From the IMG/VR virus record IMGVR_UViG_3300020001_000001, positions 1-57,411 of that record: a DNA stretch of 57,411 nt; one strand, written 5' to 3'. Shown one piece after another: positions 102-57,302 of this stretch. Position 1 is the first letter of the stretch. Each line of letters opens with the position of its first letter. The translations under genes and the position numbers were made by a program. The DNA is from a virus. Lineage: Duplodnaviria > Caudoviricetes. Under the pieces are notes generated by a model. The model did not search any database and was not told the DNA's origin. It saw nothing but the letters and a program-made list of their open reading frames with translations.

Positions 102-442
102 ATTGGACCCCGCGAGCGAGTGTGACCTCAACACCACACAGATACGGATATGTAATTGTTACGATAGCGGCATACCCCTTGCGGCACCTTGGATCGCGCG
201 TACAGGCGTCGCGCCCTCTTTCCTTGCGCTGATACCTGGAACGGCTTGCGCCGGCCTGTAGCGCAAATTCGCGCCACGCGAGACACAATCTCGCCCGGCG
301 AGATCGAAGCTACTTCAGTGGCACGCCCATTGCCGGGTCTTGGACATAGGTTGAACGGCGCCTCGTACGCGCCAGCATAACTACCATGCTGCGCTATAGC
401 CTTCTCGCCTATAGCCTGCGCCGGAGCGGCCAGAAAGTGGAC

Positions 443-475
443 AATAAAAAACCCCTGCCATCACTGGCAGGGGTT
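443..475 (-). terminator. Rho-independent terminator ending the leftward transcript
   Basis: Minus strand AACCCCTGCCA-GTGA-TGGCAGGGGTT followed by TTTTATT, downstream of ORF 563-1051. Confidence 0.8.
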
Positions 476-562
476 GAACAGGTTCCGGCTTGCCGGATCA
501 GAGAAGCAATGCCGCCACGTAGACCAGCATGGCCGCTACGGCGCAAAGGCCCATATTGGACA

Positions 563-1051
563 TTAGCCTTCTCCCTCGTTAGTGACCGGCGCGGCGGTAA
601 CGCCACCATTCCAGACAGTGGGTTTCGGCTTACGCGCGTTTTCCGCTTTCCGCTCCGCACTACTCGCCAGCATACGCCCGCGAGCCAGTACGCCCGGCAT
701 GTCAGAATAGTTGATCTTGAACATGTCAGCCACGGCTTGCCGCGCATCTTTCGGGCGGGGGAAATCCGCTTGCGCGTCAATGAACGCGACGCGAGCTTCC
801 ATGCACCGCTCGTCAGACAACGCAATGATCGTCGCCGCTTTCAGTGCGAAGCCTTCGGAGCGAATACATTCAGTCAGCTCATGGGTGTTGGATGCCAGAT
901 AGCCCGATACGCGCATTGTATCGCCGTGCAACACAACCAATTCATCCAGTAGATCACTTGTGGCATCGGTCGCACCGTCTAGCCATTCGTGGATTGTTGC
1001 CGCCTGTTTGGCGGAAAGGCCAGCGAAGAAAAGCGCGAAAGGTGTTGTCAT
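563..1051 (-). CDS. Hypothetical protein
   Basis: ORF with AGGAG upstream of ATG at 1051; lies between the ParB-like gene and the terminator. Confidence 0.7.
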   Translation of the reverse strand: MTTPFALFFAGLSAKQAATIHEWLDGATDATSDLLDELVVLHGDTMRVSGYLASNTHELTECIRSEGFALKAATIIALSDERCMEARVAFIDAQADFPRPKDARQAVADMFKINYSDMPGVLARGRMLASSAERKAENARKPKPTVWNGGVTAAPVTNEGEG

Positions 1052-1108
1052 CGTTCGTACTCCTGGAAAGGGAAACCCCTGGCGCACAATGCCAGGGGGA
1101 AAGCCAGC

Positions 1109-3748: not shown

Positions 3749-3773
3749 TTAATCCTCCTGAGTGAAGTATACT

Positions 3774-3869
3774 TCAGCCGCCCGCCAGCACCACTACCAG
3801 CGGACGCAGCACGATCGGGTACGCCGCGACAAACGCGACGAGCCCGGTCACGATCGACAGCGTTCTCAC
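3774..3869 (-). CDS. Tiny hydrophobic membrane peptide
   Basis: GTG overlaps the upstream stop; VRTLSIVTGLVAFVAAYPIVLRPLVVVLAGG. Confidence 0.4.
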   Translation of the reverse strand: MRTLSIVTGLVAFVAAYPIVLRPLVVVLAGG

Positions 3870-4012: not shown

Positions 4013-4023
4013 CGTACCCCCTC

Positions 4024-4218
4024 CTAAAACCGATAGCGCCGAAACAATTCCTGCGCCGCCTTATGCTCTTTCAGCATTGCCCGGTACAGGTCCTGTCGCT
4101 TTTTCCTGTACTTCCTTCCCCGGCCCTCCGGGTTGAGCAACCGTCTCGTCGCCCGTATGACCTCCACGTTGCTCTGACTGACGTGTAGGCCCAATCGGCA
4201 GTACGTCCCGTACATCAT
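4024..4218 (-). CDS. Basic hypothetical protein
   Basis: ATGA overlap with the upstream gene. Confidence 0.65.
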   Translation of the reverse strand: MMYGTYCRLGLHVSQSNVEVIRATRRLLNPEGRGRKYRKKRQDLYRAMLKEHKAAQELFRRYRF

Positions 4219-4739
4219 TCGCGCTCCTGATCGCCTTCGCCGATCTCCGCAGCATCAGCGAACGCCTGCTCGATCCCGGCGTTTATCGACGGTCCCGCGT
4301 CGAACCAGCCCGCGATTTTAGCCATGCGCTCCAGGTGATCCACGATGGCCAGAGACTCGTCGCCAAGCGGAGTACCGCCCCGCGTCGCTGTCCAGTGTTC
4401 GCGAGCCGCCGCGAACGTCGGAAAATCGCGACACCCGGCTTGAACTCGGATCGTTTTTTCACGACGGGCCAGAAAAATATAGCCGTCTGACCGTTGACCT
4501 CCGCAGATGATCCCGGCGCCCGTCATGTCGGCGCCACTCATGTTGGCGCCCCTCATGTTGGCGCCCCTCATGTTGGCGCCCGTCATGTTGGCGCCCGTCA
4601 TGTTGGCGTCCCTCATGTCGGCGCCACTCATGTTGGCGTCCCTCATGTTGGCGCCCCTCATGTTGGCGCCCGTCATGTTGGCATTTCGGAAATCACGTTT
4701 GCCCGCAGCGTAACGCGCCTCAAATTCTTCACGGGTCAT
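4215..4739 (-). CDS. Pentapeptide-repeat protein
   Basis: Tandem A(N/D)M(T/R/S)(G/D) repeats; AGGAG RBS; C-terminal VQAGCRDF domain typical of phage pentapeptide proteins. Confidence 0.85.
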   Translation of the reverse strand: MTREEFEARYAAGKRDFRNANMTGANMRGANMRDANMSGADMRDANMTGANMTGANMRGANMRGANMSGADMTGAGIICGGQRSDGYIFLARREKTIRVQAGCRDFPTFAAAREHWTATRGGTPLGDESLAIVDHLERMAKIAGWFDAGPSINAGIEQAFADAAEIGEGDQERE

Positions 4740-4769
4740 CAGTTTTTCTCCTGTGTTTGGAAGTATACT

Positions 4770-4934
4770 TCAGGCCACCAAGGCCAAAAGCGTGTAGAGA
4801 AAAATCAGCACCATCGAGACGGCGCTAACCAGGGCGAAACCCCGCGACGCGGGGTTCCGTAGTCGTCGTGACAGTTCCGTCGCGTTGAGTATCAGCACGA
4901 GAACTGTCACGAGGTAAAGCCATTTAGCAGTCAT
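4770..4934 (-). CDS. Small two-TM membrane protein (54 aa)
   Basis: MTAKWLYLVTVLVLILNA...GFALVSAVSMVLIFLYTLLALVA; fills a gap in the operon. Confidence 0.45.
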   Translation of the reverse strand: MTAKWLYLVTVLVLILNATELSRRLRNPASRGFALVSAVSMVLIFLYTLLALVA

Positions 4935-5272: not shown

Positions 5273-5830
5273 TCACACGTCCATTTCGTGATCGTGGAAC
5301 GACGTGTCGAGCGACGGCGTATCCAGCGGCGCGTCAGGATCGAGATACCGGCTTCGCTGTTTCTTCCGCCGTTTCTTGGCGGGGTAATCCCGCGTCAATG
5401 CCGACGAGCGTTGTTCCGTGACGACCGGCTCACCCTCCGCTATCTTGCGGGTAACTGTTGCCCTCAATACGGCCAGCGGGTGCGACGGTGCGAGCGCCCG
5501 GCCATTCAGGACCAGATACTCCACGACATCCGGCGTAGGCCACTTATCGGCCACAACCCTCGCCACGTCAGCCCGCGTCACCGGCTCACTCACAAACTGC
5601 GTTCCGGGTTCGGAAGTTACTTCCGAATTGTGGAACGTGGCGGTATGCCGGAACGTGGACGCCGAAGCCGCCTTCAACCCGACGTGGAGGTTGTCGCCTT
5701 CCGCGAGCGTCACGACCTCGCACCCGTCAAAAGCGATGTACGCCTTGCCGTCCACCACCTTAACCCACACACCCAGATCGTCGTCGAGCCGCGTGCGGTG
5801 TATCACTCGGTCCATGAGATGCTTAATCAT
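5273..5830 (-). CDS. Hypothetical protein
   Basis: GGAGG RBS; packed ORF. Confidence 0.65.
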   Translation of the reverse strand: MIKHLMDRVIHRTRLDDDLGVWVKVVDGKAYIAFDGCEVVTLAEGDNLHVGLKAASASTFRHTATFHNSEVTSEPGTQFVSEPVTRADVARVVADKWPTPDVVEYLVLNGRALAPSHPLAVLRATVTRKIAEGEPVVTEQRSSALTRDYPAKKRRKKQRSRYLDPDAPLDTPSLDTSFHDHEMDV

Positions 5831-6207: not shown

Positions 6208-6237
6208 TTCAGTCTCCTGTTTCGGTTGAAGTATACT

Positions 6238-6516
6238 TCAGACGGCGACTGGCGCCGTCCGAAGATATTCGATCAGATCGTCCAGTTCTCGCAAATCGCC
6301 CGCGAGCCGTGCGGCGTCATCTTCCGTGTTCTCGTACTCCTCGTACAACACCATGTCGCGGCACGACACATGCAGCCACTCGATACACCGGCGCCGGTGT
6401 TTCTCCGATTGCACCGCGCCTCTTTCGTCAAACCCGTACATGCACGCACCGGGATCATCGTTCGTCATGTACGAGCCCCACTGCGCCGCTCGTACCCAGA
6501 ACTGTGCGGGCGTCAT
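6238..6516 (-). CDS. Hypothetical protein
   Basis: ATGA coupling; AAQWGSYM..DPGACMYGF motif. Confidence 0.65.
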   Translation of the reverse strand: MTPAQFWVRAAQWGSYMTNDDPGACMYGFDERGAVQSEKHRRRCIEWLHVSCRDMVLYEEYENTEDDAARLAGDLRELDDLIEYLRTAPVAV

Positions 6517-6967: not shown

Positions 6968-7046
6968 TGTGGTTACTCCTGTTACCCTGGCTTCCCCAGG
7001 CTGCTACCGACGGCAAGCCGTCGGTAACGGTATGCGGAAGTATACT

Positions 7047-7382
7047 TCAAACTCGCCCGATCATGTTCGCCTTACGAATACTCTGCACGTCAATCCACTT
7101 CTCCAGACTAACTGGACGCAACTGCGTGTGATCTACCGCCCGGTACGTCCACGCCATAATCGGAAAGCCTGCTTTATCGACTCCGATGAGCCGCCACGCG
7201 GCGGCTTCACAGGGGACCATGGTGCAACCAACGCTGCCGTCTATTCGTTTATGCGCCTCGGCATAGCCCGTTTCGTGCGTATGGGGTAAAACGCAAATGC
7301 AGTTCGTGATCTTCACGATCTCTTTCGCCGCCATATCGTATGCTACGTCGTTCACTTTTAGTCCTGGGAATACGTCGGCCAT
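7047..7382 (-). CDS. Hypothetical protein
   Basis: AGGAGG RBS before ATG 7382. Confidence 0.7.
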   Translation of the reverse strand: MADVFPGLKVNDVAYDMAAKEIVKITNCICVLPHTHETGYAEAHKRIDGSVGCTMVPCEAAAWRLIGVDKAGFPIMAWTYRAVDHTQLRPVSLEKWIDVQSIRKANMIGRV

Positions 7383-7441
7383 CTTGTCCTCCTGTAACCG
7401 GGGCCGAAGCCCCGGTGTTGGTTGAAGTATACTTCGGGGTT

Positions 7442-7633: not shown

Positions 7634-7706
7634 ATTTCTTGTTCCGTTTCGGAAGTAATACTTCCGGCACTATTACCGGAAGGCGATCAGATTTCGATCG
7701 TCCCAA

Positions 7707-7735
7707 ACACTAGCACAACGACAACGCCCTGTCAA
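7707..7735 (-). promoter_or_regulatory. Sigma70-like leftward promoter
   Basis: TTGACA-17 nt-TAGTGT, with GTTGTGC before the -10 element. Confidence 0.7.
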
Positions 7736-7973
7736 GTCGCTGAAATCGACGGAAGTTACTTCCAACGGTCTCCCAACGCGCGTATCGCGATCTATTGATA
7801 CCGGGCGACGCGCGCTACGCGCGAACGCGCACGATCTGCGTACGCGAGTACCCGCATACCACATAGGCGCGCCGGCACGCACCCGCGAACGTCTACCAGG
7901 GGCGAACGCGGAAAACCGAAACTTCGGCAACCCGGTCCTAATCATGTGAGACCCACTACTAATCATGTGAGAT

Positions 7974-8002
7974 TTGACACGACATTGCCGTTGTGCTACA
8001 CT
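7974..8002 (+). promoter_or_regulatory. Sigma70-like rightward promoter (divergent pair)
   Basis: TTGACA-17 nt-TACACT, with GTTGTGC before the -10 element. Confidence 0.75.
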
Positions 8003-8064
8003 ATATTTTGGATCGGTGGAATTTCTCTGCCGAACGGAAGTTACTTCCGAAGGAGTGTGGAAAA

Positions 8065-8985: not shown

Positions 8986-9186
8986 ATGATACTACGCAGA
9001 GTTGACCGCTTACAGAAAAATGACCGCGTAAAACTTAACGCGCTCGTCTATCACGTACGTTTTATCGGCGGCGCGGAAACCGCAGGGTACACAGGAGTCC
9101 GTTTCGAGGCGGCGAACCGGGTCGGGACAGAACACGAAATCGCCGCCGTGCTTCAGAACGACGACTTGATCGAGGTCGTGATATGA
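8986..9186 (+). CDS. Hypothetical protein
   Basis: AAGGA RBS; ATGA coupling downstream. Confidence 0.55.
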   Translation: MILRRVDRLQKNDRVKLNALVYHVRFIGGAETAGYTGVRFEAANRVGTEHEIAAVLQNDDLIEVVI

Positions 9187-9440
9187 AGGCGCAACTCGCG
9201 ATGGACATGATGGCCCGCATGGCCGACGACTGGGGCGACACCGCCCAGGCCATGCTGTCCGTCACTATCGCCCTGGTGATGCGGAAGTTGGAAGTAACTT
9301 CCGTCACCGTTGCCCTGGACGAAGTTCGCGAAACGATGGACCGTTTCGCGATCATTCGGACGTACTCGGAGGTTGATGGGCGTCCGTACATGACTGTAAC
9401 TGTGGAGAAAAAGCGTGATACCGATCTACCAACAAGCTAA
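9183..9440 (+). CDS. Hypothetical protein
   Basis: Coupled ORF. Confidence 0.6.
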   Translation: MKAQLAMDMMARMADDWGDTAQAMLSVTIALVMRKLEVTSVTVALDEVRETMDRFAIIRTYSEVDGRPYMTVTVEKKRDTDLPTS

Positions 9441-9918: not shown

Positions 9919-11076
9919 ATGGCTAAAGCAGCGAAGACGAAGCCTGTGGCCGCTACCAAGGCCAAAGGCCCGAGCCTGAAGATGATTGAGTTCACCGCCG
10001 CCGCGATCAAGGATGCTATTGCCGCGACCGGCGCCAAGAAGTCCGGGAAGTTACTTCTGGTCCCGCTGGACCAGATCACGGAGGCCCCCGGCTTCAACCT
10101 CCGTATCGACAACGAGAAGTACCGCGCAGGTATCGCGAAACTCGCCAAGTCGATTGAGGCGGAAGGCTTTTATGAAAGCCATCCGCTGTCGGGCTTCGCC
10201 GCCGAAATCGACGGCGCGGCGAAGATCGTCGTCATTGACGGTCATCGCCGGTTTCAGGCGCTACAGCAACTCGCCGCCAACGGTTTCGAGTTTGACGGTA
10301 TCCCCGTCGTGCTGAAGCCGGGAGACGCGGATAGCCTCGATCTGGCGGTCGCGCTGGACAAGGAAAACTCCGCCGAAGAACTGTCCATGCTGGAGCGGGC
10401 GGTGCTGGCGAAGCGTATGCTGACCGCGGGTCTTGCCCGCAAGGAGATTGCTGATCGCCTGGACTGTTCGGAGCGTCACGTTGGCGATCTCCTGGTCCTG
10501 ATCGACGCGCCGAAGGCCATTCGCGATCTCGTCCGCGACGGCAAGATCGCTGCATACGAGGCCATCGCCAAGATGCGCAAAGAAGGCGGCGCCGACAAAA
10601 TCCTCGAAGCCGCGGCCAAGGCTGACGAACTGGCCGCTGAGAAAGCGGAGAAGGCCACGAAGCTGACCAAGACGACGCTGGAAACGGGCGGCGTCAAACC
10701 GCCGAAACTCCAGGTCTTCAAGATGAACTTCAAGGCGACCGCCGGCTCGCCGTTCGAGTACGAAGACGTTGAACCGTTCCTCGGCCTGCTCGGCGACGAG
10801 GATTGGTTCAAGCCAGTCCGCAAGAAGTCGCAGCGGATGGCCCTGTCCGATATGCAGATCGAGGTCACGATCCGGCGCCCGAAGACGGACACCGAAGTCG
10901 AGGCCGAAGCCGACTCGAAGGTGGCGGCTGACGCGGCGAAACCGCCGAAGGCCGGTCGGAAGCAGCCCGCAGCGGACCCGGACCTGGACGACGACGATGG
11001 CGGTTTGGGCGACGACGACGGCGCCGTTGACCTCCGCGCCCTCGGCATCGCGGAACCCGCCAACGCGGAAATGTGA
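9919..11076 (+). CDS. ParB/RepB/Spo0J-like protein 2 (ParB N-domain, HTH, acidic tail)
   Basis: APGFNLR and IVVIDGHRRFQAL arginine patch; HTH GLARKEIADRLDCSERHVGDLL. Confidence 0.85.
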   Translation: MAKAAKTKPVAATKAKGPSLKMIEFTAAAIKDAIAATGAKKSGKLLLVPLDQITEAPGFNLRIDNEKYRAGIAKLAKSIEAEGFYESHPLSGFAAEIDGAAKIVVIDGHRRFQALQQLAANGFEFDGIPVVLKPGDADSLDLAVALDKENSAEELSMLERAVLAKRMLTAGLARKEIADRLDCSERHVGDLLVLIDAPKAIRDLVRDGKIAAYEAIAKMRKEGGADKILEAAAKADELAAEKAEKATKLTKTTLETGGVKPPKLQVFKMNFKATAGSPFEYEDVEPFLGLLGDEDWFKPVRKKSQRMALSDMQIEVTIRRPKTDTEVEAEADSKVAADAAKPPKAGRKQPAADPDLDDDDGGLGDDDGAVDLRALGIAEPANAEM

Positions 11077-11097
11077 TCGGAAGTTACTTCTGAAACG

Positions 11098-12342: not shown

Positions 12343-12376
12343 CTTCCGATACCTCGATACCACAAGGAGGGCTGCG

Positions 12377-15613: not shown

Positions 15614-15676
15614 AAGTCTGGTAGCACTAGGAGGTAGCGAGACGAATATACATGCGAAGTTACTTCGTGTCCAGTT

Positions 15677-44089: not shown

Positions 44090-44095
44090 CGGAAG

Positions 44096-46479: not shown

Positions 46480-46556
46480 GCGCAGTCTCCGTTTTTGATT
46501 TAGTGTTGTCGTCCCGGAAGTTACTTCCGTTTCGGTCGATCTACGACCGAAACGAC

Positions 46557-46586: not shown

Positions 46587-47129
46587 TCAGTCGCGATGCT
46601 CTCTCACGAACCCGCGTGGCGTCATAAACAGGTCCAGTTCAAGTTGGGCGCTCTTGGCGTTAAAGGTTTCCAGTACCGCTTGGTCCAGGTCGATCCCGGC
46701 TTCCGCCGCTAAGAGGTCCAGGTAGATCACCACGTCGGCCAACTCGCGGGCGAGCATCGGCTTCGCTTCGTGCAGCGTCATATCGCCGCGCCTGATTTTC
46801 TTCAGGATGTTCCCGGCTTCGCCCAATTCGCCGGAAGTCGCGGTGTACCAATCATTAAGCGACCAATCGCGACCGCTGTGTTTTATCTCGCCTTTGGCGT
46901 TCTTGAACAGCGGGCAGCGCGCGAGGTTCGACCCGCGTAAAACGCGGAACGTCAAGGCGTCGCCGAAGGCCAACGCCGTTCCCGGCATCAGGTATCGGGA
47001 TATTTTGTCTTCATAGATCAGTCGTTGCGCTTCCGCTGTCGTCATCACCCCGTTGCGAAGCGCATCGGCGTTCGGATCAGACTTCTCCGCGAGCGTCCGA
47101 GAAGCGACCCCATTTTCGACGTGTGTCAT
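46587..47129 (-). CDS. MazG-like nucleotide pyrophosphohydrolase
   Basis: GELGEA.N..KK...ELADVVIYLDLLA. Confidence 0.85.
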   Translation of the reverse strand: MTHVENGVASRTLAEKSDPNADALRNGVMTTAEAQRLIYEDKISRYLMPGTALAFGDALTFRVLRGSNLARCPLFKNAKGEIKHSGRDWSLNDWYTATSGELGEAGNILKKIRRGDMTLHEAKPMLARELADVVIYLDLLAAEAGIDLDQAVLETFNAKSAQLELDLFMTPRGFVREHRD

Positions 47130-47737
47130 AGTCCTGCATCTCCTAATTTTTCCAATACCAGCCAATATGAGTGGTATTTACGCGCGTGTCTCTGGCGAAG
47201 GACCGGGTTGTATGCCGGACCGTATGTTCGGTATCGCACGAGGATGTCCTTCGCGTAGAAGCCCCTCGCTCTGGCCCATTGCCATACATGGCAATGGGTG
47301 AGCGTCGTTTTGCTGTCAGTGTAGTCCTGAGTTTTGAAAGCGACAATGCCGCCAGGACGAAGAACGCGGTAGAACTCATTCAGCGCCCCCTTGTAAGTGC
47401 GTTCAAGTTCCTCCCAGGACTTGAACATTGTGAAGCGACCGGCTGCGGCGTTCTTCGTCAGGGCCGTGCCGTGCGGACTGTACATGAAAGGCGGATCGAA
47501 AACGATGCTGTCGAGTGACCTGGACTTTACCGGGAGGGCGGTTACGTTCGCTTGTTCGGTATCGAGGTCCTGCGGATCAATGTCGAACCGTAGCCGCGGC
47601 TTCGGCACAACGCCGCTCTTGTAGAACGAGCCGCGCGAGTAGCAGACATCGGCGTCGAACGGGAAGCCCGCGTTGTGCAATTTTATAATTCCGTTCAAAA
47701 TTTCATCGTCGGTAAGGGCGATAGATTTAACGACCAT
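47126..47737 (-). CDS. Putative amino (N6A/N4C) DNA methyltransferase
   Basis: DVCYSRG, SIVFDPPF, EFYRVLRPGG. Confidence 0.75.
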   Translation of the reverse strand: MVVKSIALTDDEILNGIIKLHNAGFPFDADVCYSRGSFYKSGVVPKPRLRFDIDPQDLDTEQANVTALPVKSRSLDSIVFDPPFMYSPHGTALTKNAAAGRFTMFKSWEELERTYKGALNEFYRVLRPGGIVAFKTQDYTDSKTTLTHCHVWQWARARGFYAKDILVRYRTYGPAYNPVLRQRHARKYHSYWLVLEKLGDAGL

Positions 47738-47784
47738 CGGAAGTTACTTCCGTTCTCCGGCATACTGTATGTTGCAACATCGTA

Positions 47785-50700
47785 TCAATCCTTGCGGTAG
47801 ATTGTTGCGAGATAGCCGGAGGCATCCAACGGTAAGCCAGTGGTCCAGGCTATCGCCTCAACCATGCACTTACGCAGCGCCTCCAACGTGTAACAGTTAT
47901 CACCCTTGCGGACAAGAGCAATCAGTTCGTCGTGGACGGAGCCGACGAGTTCGAAGCCAAACTCGCGAGCCCGGATCATCCCGATCTTCAAGATGTCGCG
48001 AGCAGTCGCTTGCACCACGTTCTCGCACTGTTTGCCGCCGCTGCTAAAGACGCGGCCCCATTGATGCGTGATCTGGTTCTTACCCATATATGACAATACG
48101 CGGCGCGTGAATACCGTTGGTTCGCCGGTAACACGATCCTTTCCCTCAAACTCCTTCGTGACGATCCGGGGTTTGTAGTAGTACATCGGGCGACCGGACG
48201 GCAGTTGAACCGTCAGGTAGGGGCCATTCATCGCAAAGCGTATCTTGCCATTGACCGTCGTCGGACGACCGTTCAACGCCGCCTTGGCTGCGTTCTCCAG
48301 GGCCGCCCAGAACTCCGGTATTTCAGAATAAATCTGTCGGAACAGTTTGACGTGCCGGTGCGCTTCCTCGCGTGTGATATCCACGCCCATGTTCTCGGCG
48401 TAACCCCACAGCCCGGTACGCTTGTTCCGCTTGAACTCGCCGCCGCCTAGCTGATAGGTGCAATTATGGACGATCAGCGGCCCGTCGCTTGTTAGCACCA
48501 TGAAACGATTTTGCGGTCCCGAATTGAGAATGTCGAACGTAGGCTCCCTTACACTTCGCTTGATCGGCGATAATGTGCTCGGCGGACAGGCCCTGTCGTA
48601 TTTTACGGGCAACTGTTCCGGCGTCGCGATATCGCGGTGCAAATCGTTCGGCAAATTCAACCGCGCACATTCGTTCTCCGCGGTAGTCGATCCATCGCAG
48701 GTCCTTTTTGTTTCGGTTATTCCGGGCTTCGGAAACGAAATGGATATTACCGGCCTCATAGTTTCCGTCATTGTCCTTCCGGTCGATGTCCAAAGTTGGA
48801 TCGCCGTGTCCCGGAAGCGTAAGACAATGCGCAATAAATTCGTATACGTCCCAAAATCTACACTTGATACCCCGTCCGCCATAGCGGTGTCCAGCATCTC
48901 CAGCGCCGCGGCACCGCGACTCAATCGCATAATATCGGTTTGCGAGTCTATCGACCACGTCTCGACCCGCGTGCCGAAATCGAACGTACACACCATTGGC
49001 GTGTTCACGTTGCGCCCGTCTTGCGCAGGGCAAGCAACTTCTACTCTTGCCAAGTTCAAGATTTTGTTGATAGACCGCCGCAACGTAGCCACAGGAACAT
49101 CTGCAAACATAGTGCAATCCATTCGTTCTGCGACTGGTGGAGACAACTTCCCACTCGCCAAAGCGATAGCCTTTTTCGCGATATCCGTATTTTGTGACAG
49201 CCGACATGCGCTCTCCCATTTATTAGCTCGAACGAGTACCTCGTGTCCTGGCGTCACTCGGACGCCGCCCAAATCTATTACGTATTTGTCGCCTTGGTAG
49301 ACAACGCCGCCGTGCGACACAAAATTCTCTCCATCGAACATTCTGTCAGCCGAAGTAACTTCAGAGATTTCAGCCCAACCGCGTTGGGTCAAAACCAGCG
49401 TATCGGATGCGAAACAACCCAGGACGGCGGGCTTGCATATCTGCCGCTCGGCTCCGGTGATCGCTGCGTAGGCTTTCTGATACAGTTCCACCCCGAAGTC
49501 GCGGTACGGGTCGCGGCCCTCGGCAAATACGTTCAACATACGCGTGCAGCCAGACAGCCACGCCGTTACGGCGGTTTCGATAGCCTTCAGATCACACACC
49601 AGAAGTTCGTAGCCTTCGGGTGCCTGAAATGCGGAGCGGACGGAACCGGCCAGCGCGATCATCGGCTCGTCGAACAGAAGCGACAGATCGGACATATTGC
49701 CGCTCTGGATGACGCGAGCCGCGACCTCCAACTTTTCCCAATTAAGCGGCGTATCGTCTTCCGGCTTCAGTTGCTTGGGCGTGTGGGTCAGGTTGTGTGG
49801 CTGTGGGCCGCGTCCAGCCCAACGCAGCGTACGAGCGGCGCCGACGAACTGAAACGAGTGTCGCAGGTTGTCGTCCGCCGAGAGTCGCCGCATGATCGCG
49901 GAGAACTTCTTAACGCTCGTGCGGCTGACGTTCTGCCGAAGACGTAACGCCTTCCGGGCGTCGTTCGTCAGCACTGGCTCACCGGCCTTCCGGCACTCTG
50001 TATCTTTCGCCAGCATTTTCTTCACGCTGGCTTTCTGAAGGTCCTCATATTCGTAGCCGCGTTCCTGAAGCCACGGAAGTAACTTCGCAGTCGAGTTGGG
50101 GTTCCACAGTTTCGTGAGCGTCTTCAATTCGCGTTTCAGTTCGGCGCGGCGGACCTCCGCGAGAATATCGGCGTTCTCGACGAACTCCCGGTTGACTGGC
50201 AGTCCACGATCGTTGATCTCCTGGTCACACTCGTACGCATCCCATTCGTCATCGGCGACCTCGTAGCGGATCAGCTTATCGCGAATGCCGTCCTCCGCGA
50301 CAACGTCCTGCGCGTTATAGTCACAGAACCGCTGCCAATCTTCGGGATCAGTTTCGCGAGTGCGCCTGACATGTGGGTTTTTCTGCGTGATCCTCTGCGG
50401 CTGACAGAACAGCTTGATAAGTCTGGACCCTTCCTTGTCCTTCAGCCTGAACTGCGGCAGACCCATAGCCGTGCCGATTTGAAACAGATCGCCGGTGAAC
50501 GACTGCATGTTGGCGAGCGCCGTCGTGCAGCGCCAGCCCTTCAGCGGCGTAGCGATCTTCAGGGTATTCATCGTGATAAGACGCTCGAAGGCTGCGTTGA
50601 AAGCCCACTTCTCGACCTCGGGATCGAGAAGCGCCACCTTCAGGTCAGCCGGGAACGGGTTGCACGTCAGATCGACATGTTGCACACCGAAGCCGTCGTG

Positions 50701-50889
50701 CATGTCATAGGCGACCATCAGCGCGCGGGTTGACGGATGAACGCTGTACTCCCACACGCCGACGCTACTGGCGCCGGTCAGTGGGGCTTCGCTGAAAGTT
50801 TCGTAATCGCAACTAACGCGTTTCCGCGTCCCTTCGGAACGACGGATACCCGCGTCAGACTGCACGAATGTCGTGCCGTCCAATGGCAT
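47785..50889 (-). CDS. Family A DNA polymerase containing an intein
   Basis: DYET and AFNAAFER exonuclease motifs; motif A DLKAIE; motif B RQICK; ENVVQA.ARD; VHDE. Confidence 0.93.
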   Translation of the reverse strand: MPLDGTTFVQSDAGIRRSEGTRKRVSCDYETFSEAPLTGASSVGVWEYSVHPSTRALMVAYDMHDGFGVQHVDLTCNPFPADLKVALLDPEVEKWAFNAAFERLITMNTLKIATPLKGWRCTTALANMQSFTGDLFQIGTAMGLPQFRLKDKEGSRLIKLFCQPQRITQKNPHVRRTRETDPEDWQRFCDYNAQDVVAEDGIRDKLIRYEVADDEWDAYECDQEINDRGLPVNREFVENADILAEVRRAELKRELKTLTKLWNPNSTAKLLPWLQERGYEYEDLQKASVKKMLAKDTECRKAGEPVLTNDARKALRLRQNVSRTSVKKFSAIMRRLSADDNLRHSFQFVGAARTLRWAGRGPQPHNLTHTPKQLKPEDDTPLNWEKLEVAARVIQSGNMSDLSLLFDEPMIALAGSVRSAFQAPEGYELLVCDLKAIETAVTAWLSGCTRMLNVFAEGRDPYRDFGVELYQKAYAAITGAERQICKPAVLGCFASDTLVLTQRGWAEISEVTSADRMFDGENFVSHGGVVYQGDKYVIDLGGVRVTPGHEVLVRANKWESACRLSQNTDIAKKAIALASGKLSPPVAERMDCTMFADVPVATLRRSINKILNLARVEVACPAQDGRNVNTPMVCTFDFGTRVETWSIDSQTDIMRLSRGAAALEMLDTAMADGVSSVDFGTYTNLLRIVLRFRDTAIQLWTSTGRTMTETMRPVISISFPKPGITETKRTCDGSTTAENECARLNLPNDLHRDIATPEQLPVKYDRACPPSTLSPIKRSVREPTFDILNSGPQNRFMVLTSDGPLIVHNCTYQLGGGEFKRNKRTGLWGYAENMGVDITREEAHRHVKLFRQIYSEIPEFWAALENAAKAALNGRPTTVNGKIRFAMNGPYLTVQLPSGRPMYYYKPRIVTKEFEGKDRVTGEPTVFTRRVLSYMGKNQITHQWGRVFSSGGKQCENVVQATARDILKIGMIRAREFGFELVGSVHDELIALVRKGDNCYTLEALRKCMVEAIAWTTGLPLDASGYLATIYRKD
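48463..49416 (-). mobile_element. Intein (318 aa) in polymerase motif B
   Basis: Block A CFASDTLV, block B TPGH, block F FDILN, terminal VHN followed by C+1; removal restores KPAVLG-CTYQLGG. Confidence 0.92.
48464..49207 (-). CDS. HNH homing endonuclease in an alternative frame within the intein
   Basis: CRCSCG, SCLPC, YGGRGI, IDRKDNDGNYEAGN...NNRNK; GGAG RBS before ATG 49207 (alternative ATG 49219). Confidence 0.85.
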   Translation of the reverse strand: MSAVTKYGYREKGYRFGEWEVVSTSRRTNGLHYVCRCSCGYVAAVYQQNLELGKSRSCLPCARRAQREHANGVYVRFRHAGRDVVDRLANRYYAIESRCRGAGDAGHRYGGRGIKCRFWDVYEFIAHCLTLPGHGDPTLDIDRKDNDGNYEAGNIHFVSEARNNRNKKDLRWIDYRGERMCAVEFAERFAPRYRDAGTVARKIRQGLSAEHIIADQAKCKGAYVRHSQFGTAKSFHGANKRRAADRP

Positions 50890-51134: not shown

Positions 51135-51151
51135 GGAAGTTACTTCCGGTT

Positions 51152-52117: not shown

Positions 52118-53644
52118 CTACAGTTCGTCGTCATCGTCGAACGCATCATCCGCGGCGTCCTCCACGTCTATCCGCTCGTCCTTCTCGGAAACGAGCGTAG
52201 GCTTGCCGGGCGTGATCTGCACCAGCCCGGTTTTCTTTTTGCCGTCGCCGTACAGCAACGTCTCGATCTTGCTCGGTGCGTAAAACGCCTTCAACAGCGT
52301 TGCCGCCTTATTCACGGAAGTTACTTCCGTGACGAAGATGTCCTTTTCAAGCAGACCGGCGATGCTAAGTTCCTGCGCCGCGTGTTCGGCGTCCAGCCAT
52401 GAGAACGACCGGCGACCTCGCGTCACCTTCATGCCGGGCACATTGACGCCGGACTGCGCCAATCGCAGCAGTTCCTCCCCGATCTCTCTGAAGTACTTCT
52501 CGAAGAAACCGCGATGCCGGTAGCGCCATACGGCCAACGCCACATTCTGCGAGTTTACCTCCATTTTAACCGGCTTATCTGTTACAAATTGGTGTATCGC
52601 GACATCTCCGCCGCCGTACTCGAATGGAGGGGTTATACCCTCAATTACCCCTTCGTCAACCTCGAATGCGTCATCAGTCAGGTCGGCCAACAACGCAGAC
52701 CGGGCTGGGCACAGTTTGTCCTTGCACCACTGGCACGCTTTCGGCGAAGGCGAGCGTGGCGCGTTCTCGCGCCATCCGGCATCTGCCGCCGCCCGCACTT
52801 CTTCGCCGAAGACCAGCAATTCGATATCAGAACATTCATCCGTTTCGAAGCTGTCGAGACGCGGTTGCGCAATGCGCAGCGTGATCGAGCCGAAGCTGTA
52901 GAACCAATTCCATTCGAGGAACACACCGAGGGCATAGAGCATCGCCTGAGAGTTGCGCTTCACGTCAACCTTCAGGTGGCCCATTTTCAGATCGGTGATA
53001 ATGAGGCGACCGCGCCGAAGTATACTTCCGTCGGCGGCTCGCGTCGCCGGAATGCAGACAAAGTGATCCGCCGTTCCGCCTTGTTCGGGGATCGGGGTAT
53101 AGGACGAGTAATCGACGTGCTGTTCGATGAACACGTCACCGAGGACTTCGACCTCGGCGCAGTAGTCGATATAGCGGCGAACGTGGTGGACCATGTTCGC
53201 GTCGATCTCGACGGTATGACCGTCAGACTGGCCGGTCGTCCCGAGAAACTGTTTCGGCACACGTTCGGCACGTTTCTTTCCGTCGTCGCGGATGGCCGTC
53301 AGCCATTTCGCGGCGAAGTCGTGCGCCACCGTTCCGTACGCTGCGTCGTATCCCGCCATATCCGCCTTCGTGGCGTTTGCAAGAATGTATCCCTTGCAGT
53401 TCATCCATCCTGCGGATGATGACGGGGAAAACAATGAGTGTCCATTGTTGCCGGTCCCGTAGGTTCGGATCAGGCGAGCGATCTCCTGTTCTCGTGTCTC
53501 TGGGGTTCTGTCTTTTGCGAGCGCCGGTACTTTTGGCATCTCGTGCAGTACGCGCTTTGCGCGGTACATGTTCCGTAGCCCGTCATTCGGATAATCGCGT
53601 TTGGCGATTGCCGACGCCCTCAATTTGCGATCTATGGTCGCCAT
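52118..53644 (-). CDS. DUF2800 PD-(D/E)xK (Cas4-like) exonuclease
   Basis: HSLFSPSS..GW.NC; GT.AH; GTAD; DLKMG; QPR; CQWC....CPA. Confidence 0.88.
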   Translation of the reverse strand: MATIDRKLRASAIAKRDYPNDGLRNMYRAKRVLHEMPKVPALAKDRTPETREQEIARLIRTYGTGNNGHSLFSPSSSAGWMNCKGYILANATKADMAGYDAAYGTVAHDFAAKWLTAIRDDGKKRAERVPKQFLGTTGQSDGHTVEIDANMVHHVRRYIDYCAEVEVLGDVFIEQHVDYSSYTPIPEQGGTADHFVCIPATRAADGSILRRGRLIITDLKMGHLKVDVKRNSQAMLYALGVFLEWNWFYSFGSITLRIAQPRLDSFETDECSDIELLVFGEEVRAAADAGWRENAPRSPSPKACQWCKDKLCPARSALLADLTDDAFEVDEGVIEGITPPFEYGGGDVAIHQFVTDKPVKMEVNSQNVALAVWRYRHRGFFEKYFREIGEELLRLAQSGVNVPGMKVTRGRRSFSWLDAEHAAQELSIAGLLEKDIFVTEVTSVNKAATLLKAFYAPSKIETLLYGDGKKKTGLVQITPGKPTLVSEKDERIDVEDAADDAFDDDDEL

Positions 53645-53730
53645 TTGGAAGTTACTTCCGGCTTATGGTTAAGGGGCCGCTTATGCGCGGCCCCCTGTTT
53701 ACCCAACCCTACGCCTCCGGGGCGTAACGA

Positions 53731-54078
53731 CTAGCAAAGGCTGTCGTCATCCTCCGGGTCTTCCGCCGCCTCGCCCATGATTTCCTCACAGGCCGCGATG
53801 ACGGCACTGTAGCGGGCCGGCTTGATCCCGTTCATCTCGGCACTGTTACCAGCTTCCTTGATGATCTTCACGGCGGCGGGCTTGCCCTTCTCGTCCTTCA
53901 CGCCGACGAGTGCGGCCTTCACCATCTCGAACGTGATCTTATCTTCCTTCGGCGCCGTTACGGCCTTGCCCGGCGTCACCTTGCCGGGTGCGGCTTTGCC
54001 GCCTGGAGCCGTTCCCCCATGAGCGATCGTGTTGGCGTTGAGGGCCGCGATCAACCGCTCGGCTACTTCTTCGATCAT
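53731..54078 (-). CDS. Conserved Chi-like replication-module hypothetical protein
   Basis: LIAALNANT; VKAAL..VKD.KGK..A..II; acidic tail. Confidence 0.75.
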   Translation of the reverse strand: MIEEVAERLIAALNANTIAHGGTAPGGKAAPGKVTPGKAVTAPKEDKITFEMVKAALVGVKDEKGKPAAVKIIKEAGNSAEMNGIKPARYSAVIAACEEIMGEAAEDPEDDDSLC

Positions 54079-54141
54079 GCTATAAGTTCCTTGTTGGTTT
54101 CTGGCGAAAGTTCGAAAGTCGTTGGCCTTCGAACAATTATT

Positions 54142-54170
54142 ATGCTACCATCGACTTTCGGTTGTGTCAA
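54142..54170 (-). promoter_or_regulatory. Sigma70-like promoter of the replication operon
   Basis: TTGACA-17 nt-TAGCAT. Confidence 0.65.
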
Positions 54171-54260
54171 ATCGGTTGAAATTAGCCGAGTCAAACACTT
54201 GATCGAACGGACGGACAAAAGAGTCGATGAAACGGCGTTACAAAATCAACCGAGGGTTGG

Positions 54261-56843
54261 ATGCAAAAAACTCACAACGATAACGACGAACTGAAACTGC
54301 GTTTCAGTGTTAGCCAGGGATCGTCGATGGCGGCGGTCGATAACGTCACTCAGAGCTGGGGGGAGTTGGTCAAGAAACTGTCGCGGTCGTACGAAGACCC
54401 GATGACGCTGGCGCAGTTCAAGGAAAAGCCGAAGGATTGGCAAAACACGCGCAAACAGCGCAACGGGTATTTCATCGGCGGACAGATGAAGGGGCACGCT
54501 CGCGCGCAAGCAACCATGCGCGAGAGGCAGATACTCACGTTCGACATCGACCAGGGCAATACGGAACTGTTACGCGATCTGCGCGAGGGTAAGACAGGGC
54601 TCGGGCCGTGTGAGTATCTCGTTCACTCCACGCGCACGCATGGTGACGGAGCCGTTAAGCTGCGGCTCATAGTGCCCCTCGCGAAGTTACTTCCGAAAGA
54701 GGACTTTCAGGCCGTCGCCCGCGTGGCCGCGTGGAACCTGGATTGCAATATGGTCGTGGTCGATCCGGTGTCATTCGTGCCAGCGCAAATCATGTACTGG
54801 CCCGCGCACTGTTCAGGCGTAAAGCCGATATTGATCCGCCACCGCGGGCCGTTGCTGGACGTGTACGCGATGCTGGAGGATTGGGGCGGCGGTCCTGACG
54901 TGTGGCGCGACATCGGCATGTTGCCGGTATCGGCGCGCGACGACGCCCGGCTGCACATGCGCTCGGGCAAGATGCACCAGAACCCGTTGGACAAGCGTGG
55001 GCCGGTTGGCGCGTTCTGTCGGACGTGGTCGGTGCACGAGGCCATCGATGAGTTTCTGTCTGACGTCTACGAGCCGTCGGAGTATTCGGCCAGCGGCGAG
55101 CCATCGCGCTACTCGTACACGCAGGGAACGTCCGCAAACGGGCTGGTCGTGTTTGACAGCGGTCACGTCGAGTCCTACCACGGCAGCGACCCGCTGTCGC
55201 AGATGAACGTCAACGCGTTCGACATGGTGCGGATACACAAGTTCGGCCACCTGGACGGCGTGCGTGATGAGGACGAGAAAGACCCGCGCCAGTTGCGGTC
55301 GTTCAAGGCCATGGAGACGATGCTTCTGGAGTACCCGGATTACGTGCAAGAGTTGCGCGACGGCTACTACGGCCTGTCGCCCGACGAGATTGACGACTCT
55401 TTCGAGGCGGGCGACACCGACGCCGCAAAAACAGAAGTCACTTCCGCGATCGAAACGCCGAAAGTCGTCGATGATCCCGAGTGGGAAGCAAAACTCGACA
55501 TAAATGAGAAGGGCACCGTCAAGAATACGTTGACGAACCTGATCCTGATACTGCGCAATGGCCGGTTGCTCAAAGGCCGCTTCGGTTACAACGAACATCG
55601 GCACGTTGACTGCCTCGTGAAGCGGTTTCGCTCAATCGCACTACGGTTCGATCACAAGATACCCGCAGGAGAGACGTTCACGACCATTGACGACGCCCAT
55701 ATTGCGTCGATCCGGTCGCTGTTGGAAGCGCCGCGCGGCAAGAACAACACCGGGTGGGGCCTGCGCGTGTCTGAGCGCGACCTGAAAGACGCATTGACCG
55801 TGGTCTGTCGCGAAGCCTCCTTCCATCCGGTGCGCGACTATCTGGACACCCTGGTATGGGACGGTAAAAGCCGTATAGAGCATCTATGGACGCGAGCCTG
55901 TCACACGCCCGACACGCCCTACTACCGCATGACCTCGCACCACTTCCTGGTGGCGGCGGTCGCGCGAGTTTACGAGCCGGGGACCAAGTTCGACTTCATG
56001 CCGGTTCTGATCGGGCCGCAGGGTATCCGAAAGTCAACACTTGTGATGACCATCGGTTCGTCGGCCTGGACGACCGAGTCAGAAGGTCATTTCGATGATA
56101 AAAAGAAGTTCGTGGAGGCGTCGCTCGGGTTCTGGTTTATTGAGCATGGCGAGATGACGCACTTCCGGCGTGCGAGTGACGAGGAAGGGATCAAGGCCAT
56201 GTTGAGCGGGACCGCCGACACGGTTCGGCTGTCCTACCGGCGCAACCCGGAAACGATACGGCGGGACTTCGTCATCGTCGGCACGACAAACGATTGGGCA
56301 TTCCTGCGCACGACGCACCGGCGTATCTGGCCGATCCCCTGCGAAGGCCGCATCGACCTGGAGTGGGCCGCAGCGAACCGCGACCAACTGTTCGCGGAGG
56401 CCGTTCAAGAGTACCGGCGGATGCGGCGCGAGAGCAACAGTGGGTTCTTGCCGCTCTACCTGACCGGGGAGGCCGATGACGAACACCAGCGCCGACAGGC
56501 CGAACATCTCCTGCCCGACGACTCCGCCGCGAAAGCGGGGATCGTGGCCGACTACCTGGATGCACTCGTTCCGTTTTCGCAATCGAAGCCCGGTTGGTCG
56601 GGCGAGGACGCGACGGACGCGGCGATCACCGATGAAGATACCGTCAGGCGGACGTACACGTGCGCGGTCGATATTTTTGTCCGGGCGCTCGGCGGCGACT
56701 TCTCGAAGTACGATCGGCGTGCCGCCCAAAACGTCGGAGAGATCATGCGGAACCTGGAACCCGAATGGCGAGCGGGGGTGAAGGCTCGGTGCGGCAGATG
56801 GGGCATCCAAAGGACATACCGGCGAAATGGGATCGATCTTTAG
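54261..56843 (+). CDS. Primase-helicase (PrimPol-like N-terminus with VirE/VapE SF3 helicase)
   Basis: FDID, HSTRTH, LRLIVP; GPQGIRKST Walker A; VGTTN. Confidence 0.9.
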   Translation: MQKTHNDNDELKLRFSVSQGSSMAAVDNVTQSWGELVKKLSRSYEDPMTLAQFKEKPKDWQNTRKQRNGYFIGGQMKGHARAQATMRERQILTFDIDQGNTELLRDLREGKTGLGPCEYLVHSTRTHGDGAVKLRLIVPLAKLLPKEDFQAVARVAAWNLDCNMVVVDPVSFVPAQIMYWPAHCSGVKPILIRHRGPLLDVYAMLEDWGGGPDVWRDIGMLPVSARDDARLHMRSGKMHQNPLDKRGPVGAFCRTWSVHEAIDEFLSDVYEPSEYSASGEPSRYSYTQGTSANGLVVFDSGHVESYHGSDPLSQMNVNAFDMVRIHKFGHLDGVRDEDEKDPRQLRSFKAMETMLLEYPDYVQELRDGYYGLSPDEIDDSFEAGDTDAAKTEVTSAIETPKVVDDPEWEAKLDINEKGTVKNTLTNLILILRNGRLLKGRFGYNEHRHVDCLVKRFRSIALRFDHKIPAGETFTTIDDAHIASIRSLLEAPRGKNNTGWGLRVSERDLKDALTVVCREASFHPVRDYLDTLVWDGKSRIEHLWTRACHTPDTPYYRMTSHHFLVAAVARVYEPGTKFDFMPVLIGPQGIRKSTLVMTIGSSAWTTESEGHFDDKKKFVEASLGFWFIEHGEMTHFRRASDEEGIKAMLSGTADTVRLSYRRNPETIRRDFVIVGTTNDWAFLRTTHRRIWPIPCEGRIDLEWAAANRDQLFAEAVQEYRRMRRESNSGFLPLYLTGEADDEHQRRQAEHLLPDDSAAKAGIVADYLDALVPFSQSKPGWSGEDATDAAITDEDTVRRTYTCAVDIFVRALGGDFSKYDRRAAQNVGEIMRNLEPEWRAGVKARCGRWGIQRTYRRNGIDL

Positions 56844-57140
56844 GTTTCAGGGCAGTACACGGGGCAGTACACGGGGGCAGTACACACAAAACTGGCGGAA
56901 ATCCGCCATAAAGAACTGCGTGGACTGCGTGTACTGCCTTTTCGCACATAGCCCAAATACAGGCCGTGCGTGCCGTCGTATGCGTCATACCCCCTACTCC
57001 TGTTCTACTACACTTCTTTTAGTACTAATAAGCAGTACACGCAGTACACAGTGGTCAAATACGGCGGATTTCAGCCGTTTTTAGCGTGTACTGCCCCGTG
57101 TACTGCCCCGTGTACTGCCCGTGTACTGCCTCCTGAAAAC
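56844..57140. repeat. Large imperfect inverted repeat with GCAGTACAC iterons; putative replication origin
   Basis: GGCAGTACAC x3 on the left, GTGTACTGCC x4 on the right; GGCGGAAATCCGCC pairs with GGCGGATTTCAGCC. Confidence 0.8.
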
Positions 57141-57159
57141 CCACTTTGCCGGGGCCAAA

Positions 57160-57233
57160 TCATTAGAAAGGTGATAATGATCCGGCTGCCGAATAATAAT
57201 TCATTAGAAAGCTGATAATGATCCGGCTGCCGA
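57160..57233. repeat. 33-bp direct repeat x2 (1 mismatch)
   Basis: TCATTAGAAAG(G/C)TGATAATGATCCGGCTGCCGA at 57160 and 57201. Confidence 0.85.
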
Positions 57234-57302
57234 CTAAATAGAAGTGACTTCCGGTATAGCCCGACCGACCGACCGGGGTAAGCCGTAGTGGAGTACTGAT
57301 AA

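Follow-up and report, generated by a model that had tools for sequence, protein, structure and literature searches.

Dispersed sites read by a single protein are known from several replicons. In the IncP-1 plasmid RK2, the OB sites of KorB are dispersed over a ~60-kb replicon, near promoters, far from them and within genes. Noc, a ParB paralogue that tethers DNA to the membrane and blocks cell division, binds palindromes (NBS) dispersed across the whole Bacillus subtilis chromosome, not a centromere cluster, and spreads from them. The stoperators of Cluster A mycobacteriophages and the inverted repeats of phiC31 comprise dozens of 13–17 bp sites for one silencing phage protein; these phages are temperate, their binder is the immunity repressor, and the stoperators are asymmetric, oriented with transcription and intergenic. 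In N15, sites for a ParB-family protein (SopB) are scattered in the genome, but there are only four, and they serve plasmid-prophage partition together with the ParA-type SopA. Here we describe a palindrome array that covers the virus record IMGVR_UViG_3300020001_000001 (Duplodnaviria; Caudoviricetes), which we analyzed over its whole length of 57,411 bases (hereafter the window), and consider a ParB/KorB/Noc-like protein encoded in the same record as its candidate reader.

KorB bound to cytidine triphosphate (CTP) is described as loading at OB, a 13-bp odd palindrome, closing as a clamp and sliding to distant promoters (PMC11790492); an oligonucleotide given there contains the OB core TTTAGCGGCTAAA. 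By analogy, we rate the window's array as resembling the KorB–OB and Noc–NBS kind, in a new form. Like KorB, the candidate reader is a ParB-family protein with a predicted N-terminal nucleotide-binding domain and a central helix-turn-helix (HTH), and its presumed site resembles OB in being palindromic over 13 bp around a single central base. Unlike RK2, the window is a phage and not a plasmid, has 49 evenly spaced sites compared to about 12, and has half of them forced into coding sequence. The window protein also differs from KorB in that it has no Pfam KorB match and scores below the NCBIfam ParB cut-off. Noc (7ol9) is its best sequence match in the PDB; however, NBS is a 14-bp even palindrome with ~70 copies in 4.2 Mb, ~50 times sparser than the window sites, and the cell-division task of Noc has no obvious phage counterpart.

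Neither partition nor repressor systems fit the window as well. Among its 72 open reading frames (ORFs; rough calls over 90% of the DNA, leaving ~10% non-coding), a Pfam scan found no ParA/CbiA-type domain, no repressor domain and no KorA homologue, in agreement with the original prediction, which had recognized neither a ParA nor a repressor; no ParA/IncC homologue was seen either. The window lacks an integrase and lysogeny genes were not found. Neither it nor eight other motif-bearing records examined has a tyrosine-integrase match, so the phage is probably virulent. On these grounds we rejected a ParABS partition system. We likewise rejected stoperator-type repressor sites, as the window site is a perfect palindrome, lies within genes in 24 of 49 cases and is regularly spaced. 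Unlike N15, the window lacks both ParA and recognizable lysogeny genes.

The core GAAGT-N(1-2)-ACTTC occurs 49 times in the window (counted with the pattern AAGT-N(1-2)-ACTT), with a one-nucleotide spacer in 41 sites and the spacer TA in eight; the 10 core bases are invariant by construction of the search pattern. The main class reads (C)GGAAGT-W-ACTTCC(G), with the full consensus C-GGAAGT-W-ACTTCC-G. The second class is TGAAGTATACTTCA, read as T-GAAGTATACTTC-A with the flanks T...A preferred, and six of its eight copies lie at 2.6–7.4 kb, punctuating the leftward operon. The original prediction had reported about 50 copies of one palindrome across the genome, and all 49 of the starts that it listed as intact agree, compared by eye, with our 49 sites to within 5 nt; the four that it had marked as degenerate are three one-mismatch forms and one site (7652) with a 3-nt spacer. 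The core is common to all sites, but 'one palindrome' is better described as two site classes, with 1-nt and 2-nt spacers.

Chance does not produce such numbers. The exact form GGAAGTNACTTCC occurs 29 times in the window and not once in any of 100 dinucleotide-preserving shuffles. Allowing up to one mismatch, GAAGTNACTTC occurs 44 times (41 exact; one mismatch at 306, 28610 and 30433), compared to a mean of 1.23 and a maximum of 5 in the shuffles, none of which reached 44. The claim that the motif lies far above chance is borne out, shuffled sequence containing almost none.

The form of the sites suggests what kind of molecule reads them. Among the 41 one-nucleotide-spacer sites, the central base is T in 23, A in 15, C in two and G in one, within perfect dyad symmetry. 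The position counts and site list show that the outer positions vary on one side only, without compensation, and the counts are at background two bases outside the 15-bp consensus. A mobile repeat of the REP or MITE kind was rejected because the flanks are random beyond 15 bp and the in-gene copies are in frame and translated. The exact sequence, the dyad symmetry and the lack of compensatory changes argue for a dimeric protein that binds double-stranded DNA rather than for an RNA hairpin, and the palindromes point to recognition sites on duplex DNA for a symmetric dimeric protein. To this extent, the earlier proposal of a dimeric phage binder is supported.

The first 100 bases of the record are exactly repeated at 57312–57411, an overlap left by the assembly of a genome that is circular or has redundant termini; this gives a closed circle of ~57.3 kb unique length. 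Within the linear record, the gaps between sites average 1138 bases, with a coefficient of variation (CV) of 0.47 and a largest gap of 2356. When 49 points were placed at random 100,000 times, the CV never fell below 0.58 and the largest gap averaged 5118, close to the 5 kb estimated earlier; no placement reached the observed CV or the observed largest gap, and the window's spacing is more even than that of every simulation. The earlier figure of ~2.3 kb for the largest gap holds in the linear record, but the true largest gap, by hand arithmetic, is the ~2.67 kb across the circular junction. Even spacing is also significant in G002, G003, G006 and G016 (P 0.002 or less, as for the window; G-numbered relatives are IMG/VR records), whereas spacing in G001, G004, G005, BcepNazgul and G034 is indistinguishable from random (P 0.07–0.44). 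Even spacing is therefore a property of the window's own clade plus one other relative.

Twenty-four of the 49 sites lie within genes, compared to a mean of 1.12 and a maximum of 3 in 200 synonymous-codon shuffles, so the excess over codon-preserving expectation that had been foreseen is present. The other 25 lie outside called genes, although so little of the DNA is non-coding. In 16 of the 24 in-gene sites, the motif reads GAA-GTW-ACT-TCN and encodes EVTS; these 16 are all of the EVTS tetrapeptides in the window proteome, where 0.27 would be expected. At these positions distant orthologues have unrelated residues or gaps, suggesting that the motif was written into tolerant loops (among others in TerL, the protease, the tape measure and the exonuclease). 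The sites are thus under strong DNA-level selection, even against protein sequence. As had been described, they occur in accessory, replication and structural modules alike, and all gene modules are covered. The intact and degenerate sites are as follows (window coordinates, no strand assigned).

306–316: one-mismatch site GAAGCTACTTC (mismatch scan)
2602–2613: 2-nt-spacer site TGAAGTATACTTCT, intergenic, upstream of the second ParB-like gene
3764–3775: 2-nt-spacer site, intergenic
4760–4771: 2-nt-spacer site, intergenic
5613–5623: 1-nt-spacer site within gene 5273–5830 (−)
6228–6239: 2-nt-spacer site, gene edge/intergenic
7037–7048: 2-nt-spacer site, gene edge/intergenic
7424–7435: 2-nt-spacer site, intergenic
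7652–7664: degenerate site, 3-nt spacer (GAAGTAATACTTC), divergent control region, 19 nt ahead of the start of a leftward gene
7752–7762: site within divergent intergenic region 7634–8064
8037–8047: site between sigma-70-like promoter (7974–8002) and ATG at 8065
9291–9301: site within gene 9183–9440 (+)
10047–10057: site within ParB-like gene
11080–11090: site 4 bp past ParB-like stop codon
11582–11592: site within gene 11420–11617 (+)
12336–12346: site covering stop of gene 11614–12342 (+)
13352–13363: 2-nt-spacer site, end of gene 12798–13370 (+)
14367–14377: site within gene 14157–14438 (+)
15656–15666: intergenic site (CGAAGTTACTTCG)
16129–16139: site, intergenic/gene edge
17029–17039: intergenic site
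18738–18748: intergenic site
20232–20242: site within tail gene 18752–21880 (−)
21883–21893: site, central C, small gene or gene junction
22075–22085: intergenic site
24254–24264: site within gene 23233–25776 (−)
25921–25931: site within tape-measure gene
27579–27589: site within tape-measure gene
28610–28620: one-mismatch site (GAAGTAGCTTC) within tape-measure gene
29935–29945: site within tape-measure gene
30433–30443: one-mismatch site (GAAGATACTTC) within tape-measure gene
31820–31830: site within pre-tape-measure gene
33551–33561: site within gene 33493–34131 (−)
34683–34693: site within gene 34553–34864 (−)
36620–36630: intergenic site upstream of capsid gene
37819–37829: site within prohead protease gene
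38785–38795: intergenic site, 9 nt upstream of protease start
41125–41135: intergenic site
42248–42258: site within TerL gene, indel-tolerant position
44092–44102: site directly upstream of TerS start, over helicase stop
44602–44612: site within SNF2 helicase gene; no other in-gene site keeps its place in BcepNazgul and G004 as well
45583–45593: site, intergenic or at helicase 5′ end
46517–46527: intergenic site
47740–47750: site directly upstream of gene 47126–47737 (−)
49352–49362: site within PolA gene, in extra 314-aa insert
50076–50086: site within PolA gene
51136–51146: site filling 17-nt spacer between two genes, abutting ATG
52317–52327: site within exonuclease gene
53017–53028: 2-nt-spacer site within exonuclease gene
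53648–53658: site directly upstream of exonuclease start
54683–54693: site within primase-helicase gene
55434–55444: site, central C, within primase-helicase gene
57241–57251: site, central G, adjoining iteron cluster

The record has 59% G+C and is present only in two contig sets, both from one soil-metagenome sample. The portal protein shares 61% identity with its counterpart in Burkholderia phage AH2 and 53% with that in BcepNazgul (both Casjensviridae); a phage collection searched at the nucleotide level contained no relative. Pfam and PHROGs assigned the usual head and tail genes of lambda-like type, and also a replication module (gpA-type terminase, SNF2 helicase, family-A DNA polymerase, Gp2.5-like single-stranded DNA-binding protein (SSB), exonuclease and primase-helicase), together with two ParB-like, one LuxR-type and two methyltransferase-like ORFs. 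Among relatives, the motif is present in the following numbers.

BcepNazgul: 18 copies
AH2: 0 copies
G003: 71 copies in 64 kb
G006: 59 copies
G002: 22 copies in 27.5 kb (fragment)
G001: 26 copies
G005: 23 copies
G004: 19 copies
G016: 15 copies
G034: 13 copies in 36 kb (fragment)
G043: 12 copies (strict 13-mer)
G035: 6 copies, central S (fragment)

A reversed-pattern control gave no copies in motif-bearing records. No copy is present in 28 of the 34 records of one relative set, and of 80 loci fetched around terminase relatives, 17 have at least two copies and 59 have none. Site density in BcepNazgul-type genomes is 0.25–0.46 per kb, close to that of RK2 with its 12 OB sites in 60 kb. In-gene site positions are kept in close relatives (14 of 18 mapped in G003, 15 of 18 in G006, 10 of 11 in G002) and rarely in distant ones (1 of 13 in both BcepNazgul and G004, 0 of 14 in both G001 and G005, 0 of 13 in G016, 0 of 8 in G034). 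The different positions in distant relatives suggest that the same word arose at its sites separately in each of these lineages.

Some other lineages have sister palindromes, likewise of 6-N-6 build: CGGAAAT-N-ATTTCCG (nine in G008), GGAAAY-N-RTTTCC (L416/G047), GAAAAGC-N-GCTTTTC (seven in a 14.7-kb contig) and TCAACTT-W-AAGTTGA (four in L352; L352/G033). Position 5 of the half-site is G in most lineages and A in G008 and G047. These lineage-specific forms fit a phage-borne reader with drifting specificity. The 15-mer matches listed from bacterial genomes come from a scatter of unrelated phyla, mostly with a single match on a contig, and no host signal was seen among them.

Three further observations concern the motif outside the window. 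In G035 (L376–L377), a 26-kb fragment, all six copies have a central C or G, compared to A or T in 38 of 41 in the window. AH2-type genomes (AH2, G010, G009), which lack the motif, share the palindrome ACAACA-N3-TGTTGT; it lies together with a reversed copy at a distance of ~400 bp downstream from the ParB-like gene (13505–13530 in AH2 (L001), ~11170–11195 in G010), has 2–3 copies per genome in AH2 and G009, and may be their cognate site. In Cytophagales (Rufibacter, Sabulibacter; L160, L161, L165, L174, L185), the 15-mer occurs in several places in pairs ~25 bp apart, which looks like an unrelated host repeat family.

Literature searches, which did not extend to subscription journals or supplements, found no paper that gives the motif for a phage; the papers listed as containing it were, by their titles, on primers or unrelated. 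The same literature described no dispersed palindromes for BcepNazgul, Casjensviridae, phage ParB-like proteins or phage genomes in general. Such a whole-chromosome palindrome array seems not to have been described before for a virus.

The candidate reader and the features considered with it are listed here.

9919–11076, + strand: ParB/KorB/Noc-like gene, 385 aa, candidate reader (Pfam, PHROG, phmmer, AF2)
1109–2485, − strand: second ParB-like gene, 458 aa (PHROG ParB-like, 4e-30; phmmer to Spo0J and ParB)
7974–8002, + strand: sigma-70-like promoter, assigned solely by consensus match, for the early operon that runs rightward

The product of 9919–11076 matches Pfam HTH_ParB (E 1.1e-5, 26 bits, cut-off 22.6) and a ParB-like PHROG (4e-40), and phmmer aligns residues 74–218 with Noc 7ol9 (E 2.4e-5) and Spo0J. 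Its AlphaFold2 (AF2) model has a mean predicted local distance difference test (pLDDT) score of 69.5; most 10-residue blocks of residues 21–260 score at least 80, two blocks near 131–150 score 71–73, and the helices of 157–242 have block means of ~71–93. The model matches Noc, KorB and ParB over ~220 columns, and also sulfiredoxin and the KorB DNA-binding domain 1r71; its best TM match is the KorB-KorA-DNA complex 8qa9 (TMt 0.68). G58, N60, R62, G108, R111, N150 and E159 are invariant in the ParB-like homologues, and the Box I Arg (R62), the Box II Gly and Arg (G108, R111) and the Box III Asn (N150) are so in 25 homologues. Judged by these matches and the predicted fold, the protein is a true ParB-family member with an N-terminal nucleotide-binding domain and a central HTH.

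We note that the ParB-like proteins of 13 aligned genomes mostly have an acidic stretch before the C-terminus, and nearly all end in DDL, DDI, DEL, ADL or EGL. They recall the acidic tails of T7-type replication proteins, which dock on the polymerase.

In gene-presence tables from tblastn with the window, BcepNazgul and G001 ORFs as queries, all nine motif-bearing near-complete genomes and G008 share just one gene that belongs to neither the structural nor the replication module, the ParB-like gene. None of the five downloaded Chi-like genomes, which lack the motif, has this gene, and neither do 19 of 22 further motif-poor records, among them all 14 with a completeness of 90% or more. The survey of relatives for palindromes and ParB-like genes thus came out in the direction foreseen. 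The Pfam model PF02195 (ParB_N) matched in none of the four fragments G002, G033, G035 and G040 (24–70% complete), but this model misses the window's protein too, so the result carries no weight. In the window, G003, G006 and BcepNazgul, the stop codon of the ParB-like gene is followed 4–7 bp later by a site, and one lies 77–160 bp upstream of the ParB-like ORF in G004, G016, BcepNazgul and G001. ParB-type systems have a palindromic site of 13–16 bp with at least one copy beside the binder's gene; the palindrome here measures 13–15 bp and has copies beside the candidate gene.

Other window genes were considered as readers and set aside. The LuxR/GerE protein (12377–12817) has no homologue in any of 19 other genomes; TerS, the SNF2 helicase, SSB and the exonuclease occur in motif-lacking genomes too; family-A polymerase alone occurs in Chi-like genomes without the motif; and the type of primase is not conserved among motif-bearing genomes.

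Two genes taken together show another pattern. Dispersed palindromes are present in all 10 records that have both the ParB-like gene and window-type PolA (the window, BcepNazgul, G001, G003–G006, G016, G043 and, in variant form, G008), in none of 10 with the ParB-like gene but no such PolA (G022 has three copies and G009 two) and in none of three with PolA but no ParB-like gene; G034 was left out of this count, being 63% complete. A tyrosine integrase is present in none of nine motif-bearing records, compared to four of nine motif-lacking records that have the ParB-like gene, and the annotation of AH2 includes one. Together, these splits suggest that the array belongs to apparently virulent members with their own polymerase, a setting in which the ParB protein cannot serve plasmid partition.

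We regard the ParB-like protein of 9919–11076 as the most likely reader of the sites, and several observations weigh against it. Ten records carry the gene without the dispersed motif (AH2, G007, G009, G010, G015, G022, G041, G042, G044 and G046), so the gene alone is not sufficient. The motif label requires three changes on the ParB-like tree and two to three on the TerL, portal, capsid and helicase trees; because all gene trees cluster the motif equally, the co-occurrence is worth one or two evolutionary events and singles out no gene. The ParB-like proteins of motif-bearing genomes are only ~30% identical while the motif is identical. The putative recognition helix is SERHVGDL in the window and SDRYLYDL in BcepNazgul, which share the motif, and G008, with its variant motif, has a recognition helix like the others'. 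When specificity covariation was sought, only column I216 differed in the two variant-motif proteins, and it varies in motif-lacking ones too. Box II reads GHRR only in the window clade and AH2, and GHTR, GHHR, GQHR or GYTR in other homologues, making CTP use uncertain. Given the shallow co-occurrence, the lack of covariation and the ten records with the gene and no motif, we put the probability that this protein is the reader at roughly one in two, judging from sequence comparison.

The same observations bear on a different possibility, namely that the ParB-like protein is a bystander from the same clade and another dimeric DNA-binding protein reads the sites. This could be a conserved protein of the host, or a small phage regulator evolving too fast for tblastn to trace it between genomes. 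An identical motif across ~30%-identical ParB-like proteins with no covarying specificity residue, the ten records with the gene and no motif, and the equal clustering on trees of other genes would all be expected in this case, and many small early-arm ORFs without detectable homologues could supply such a regulator. However, no further accessory gene is common to all motif-bearing genomes, and the LuxR-type gene has no homologue in any relative tested. The lineage-specific sister motifs suit a phage-borne reader better than a host one, and the bacterial 15-mer matches listed gave no host signal. We consider a reader of this kind unlikely, though to be taken seriously.

We also explored the idea that the sites serve replication, as priming, initiation or nicking signals for the phage replisome. 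A palindrome offers the same signal on both template strands, a spacing of 1–2 kb approximates Okazaki-fragment length, the motif occurs only where window-type family-A polymerase and the ParB-like gene coexist (10/10), and one site adjoins an iteron cluster next to the primase gene. Against this, the window-type primase-helicase is found only in G003, G006, G002 and, weakly, G016; Chi-like genomes have the polymerase and not the motif; the correlation with the polymerase runs along the same line that divides temperate from non-temperate lineages; and a conventional iteron origin candidate is present at 56850–57135. Known phage nick or primase signals are also short or asymmetric. A replicative role therefore appears quite improbable.

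A hairpin in RNA (or single-stranded DNA), CGGAAG-UWA-CUUCCG, could instead mark cistron boundaries for processing, stability or translation. The palindrome appears in the transcript from either strand, 25 of the 49 sites are outside genes, and the sites at 44092, 47740, 51136 and 53648 end 0–3 nt before the ATG of a leftward gene, where copies abutting start codons could supply GGAAG as a ribosome-binding site. In the six of 49 sites that were folded, a 6-bp stem with a 3-nt loop has −3.9 to −7.1 kcal/mol, but this is weak (z-scores −0.7 to −2.7). The stem shows no compensatory changes, its sequence being fixed and its outer pair varying on one side; the 2-nt-spacer variant keeps the half-sites and not the stem length; and the 24 in-gene sites and the even spacing bear no relation to cistron ends. 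The inspected flanks contain no T run after the sites. A structured RNA or intrinsic terminator was rejected on the lack of compensation, the weak folding and the missing T run, and we hold the hairpin reading as a whole to be very improbable.

Least probable of all is that the motif is the target of a modification- or restriction-related enzyme (a methyltransferase or ParB-assisted modifier) and acts as a dense epigenetic self-mark: two ORFs match PHROG 'DNA methyltransferase' (11614–12342 and 47126–47737), and phage ParB homologues can activate DNA-modifying dioxygenases (PMC13229309), but clear methyltransferase-like homologues are found only in G003 and G006 (70–73% identity) and are missing from other motif-bearing genomes, one weak 29% match lies in motif-lacking G020, the Pfam scan of the 72 ORFs found no dioxygenase domain, the ParB homologues described in PMC13229309 have no evident DNA-binding domain, unlike the 9919–11076 product, and being a target explains neither over-representation nor even spacing.

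The second ParB-like gene has a clear homologue only in G003 (39% identity); its 25–30% matches in other genomes with a ParB-like gene are probably cross-matches to that single gene. Its product could, speculatively, read the 2-nt-spacer class, but G003, which has the gene, has only one TA-spacer site in the corresponding arm compared to 21 1-nt-spacer sites. Three sites fall in the window's divergent early control region, and BcepNazgul has a site in its equivalent divergent region. At 7941–7973, two copies of a 13-mer, TAATCATGTGAGA, spaced 20 bp apart, immediately precede the −35 box of the promoter at 7974–8002, and the pair may be the site of a second regulator.

Several neighboring features stand apart from the array. 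A pentapeptide-repeat protein is encoded in the early leftward operon at 4215–4739 (− strand; Pfam E 1.6e-24); such proteins can mimic DNA, and this one may have an anti-host or anti-defence role. The family-A polymerase (47785–50889, − strand) has a 314-residue insert (residues 493–806) that is missing from all relatives' polymerases; it matches no Pfam family and has only a faint PHROG 'endonuclease' match at residues 511–571. The insert may be an intein or a homing-endonuclease-like insertion, and it holds one palindrome copy. Pfam assigned no family to ORF 54019–54291 or to the methyltransferase-like ORF 11614–12339. Just past the primase-helicase gene, 56850–57135 contains about nine iteron copies, GGCAGTACAC, which change from direct to inverted orientation and lie on either side of an A+T-rich stretch near 57000–57040; the region looks like a replication origin. 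At 57158–57235, just ahead of the palindrome at 57241, lie two copies of a ~33-bp direct repeat (tcattagaaag-tgataatgatccggctgccga).

If the ParB-like protein is the reader, its dimer would bind the candidate duplex site GGAAGTWACTTCC through its HTH domains. By analogy to KorB on RK2 and to Noc, the N-terminal nucleotide-binding domains would then shut to form a clamp, which would move off the site and slide along the DNA. A loading site every ~1.1 kb would load the whole chromosome evenly, and this load would serve global transcription control, or the marking, organizing or shielding of phage DNA during lytic growth. We infer ParB-like binding, CTP use, sliding and the purpose of the coat. 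A still broader scenario is that this integrase-lacking, apparently virulent siphophage clade made a ParB-CTP clamp into a whole-genome coat. Loading sites at ~1-kb intervals would keep the DNA continuously loaded with clamps that mark it as self and draw it into a ParB condensate; this condensate could be a nucleus-free replication and packaging compartment or a shield against host nucleases, and the system would have co-evolved with the family-A replisome. We think this unlikely and offer it tentatively.

Selection on the DNA appears strong enough to place 16 identical tetrapeptides in unrelated proteins. The motif provides a simple signature for this phage group in metagenomes, and any recoding of such phages should either keep it or take it out on purpose. 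Because BcepNazgul is a cultured, published relative with 18 copies, the question of the reader is directly testable. Should the ParB-like protein read the sites, no ParB-type array known to us would surpass this one in density or regularity, and it would be the first in an apparently virulent phage. It would mean that viruses use CTP-clamp proteins beyond partition, and it would provide a natural system for studying how far clamps travel, with the site spacing as the evolved answer.

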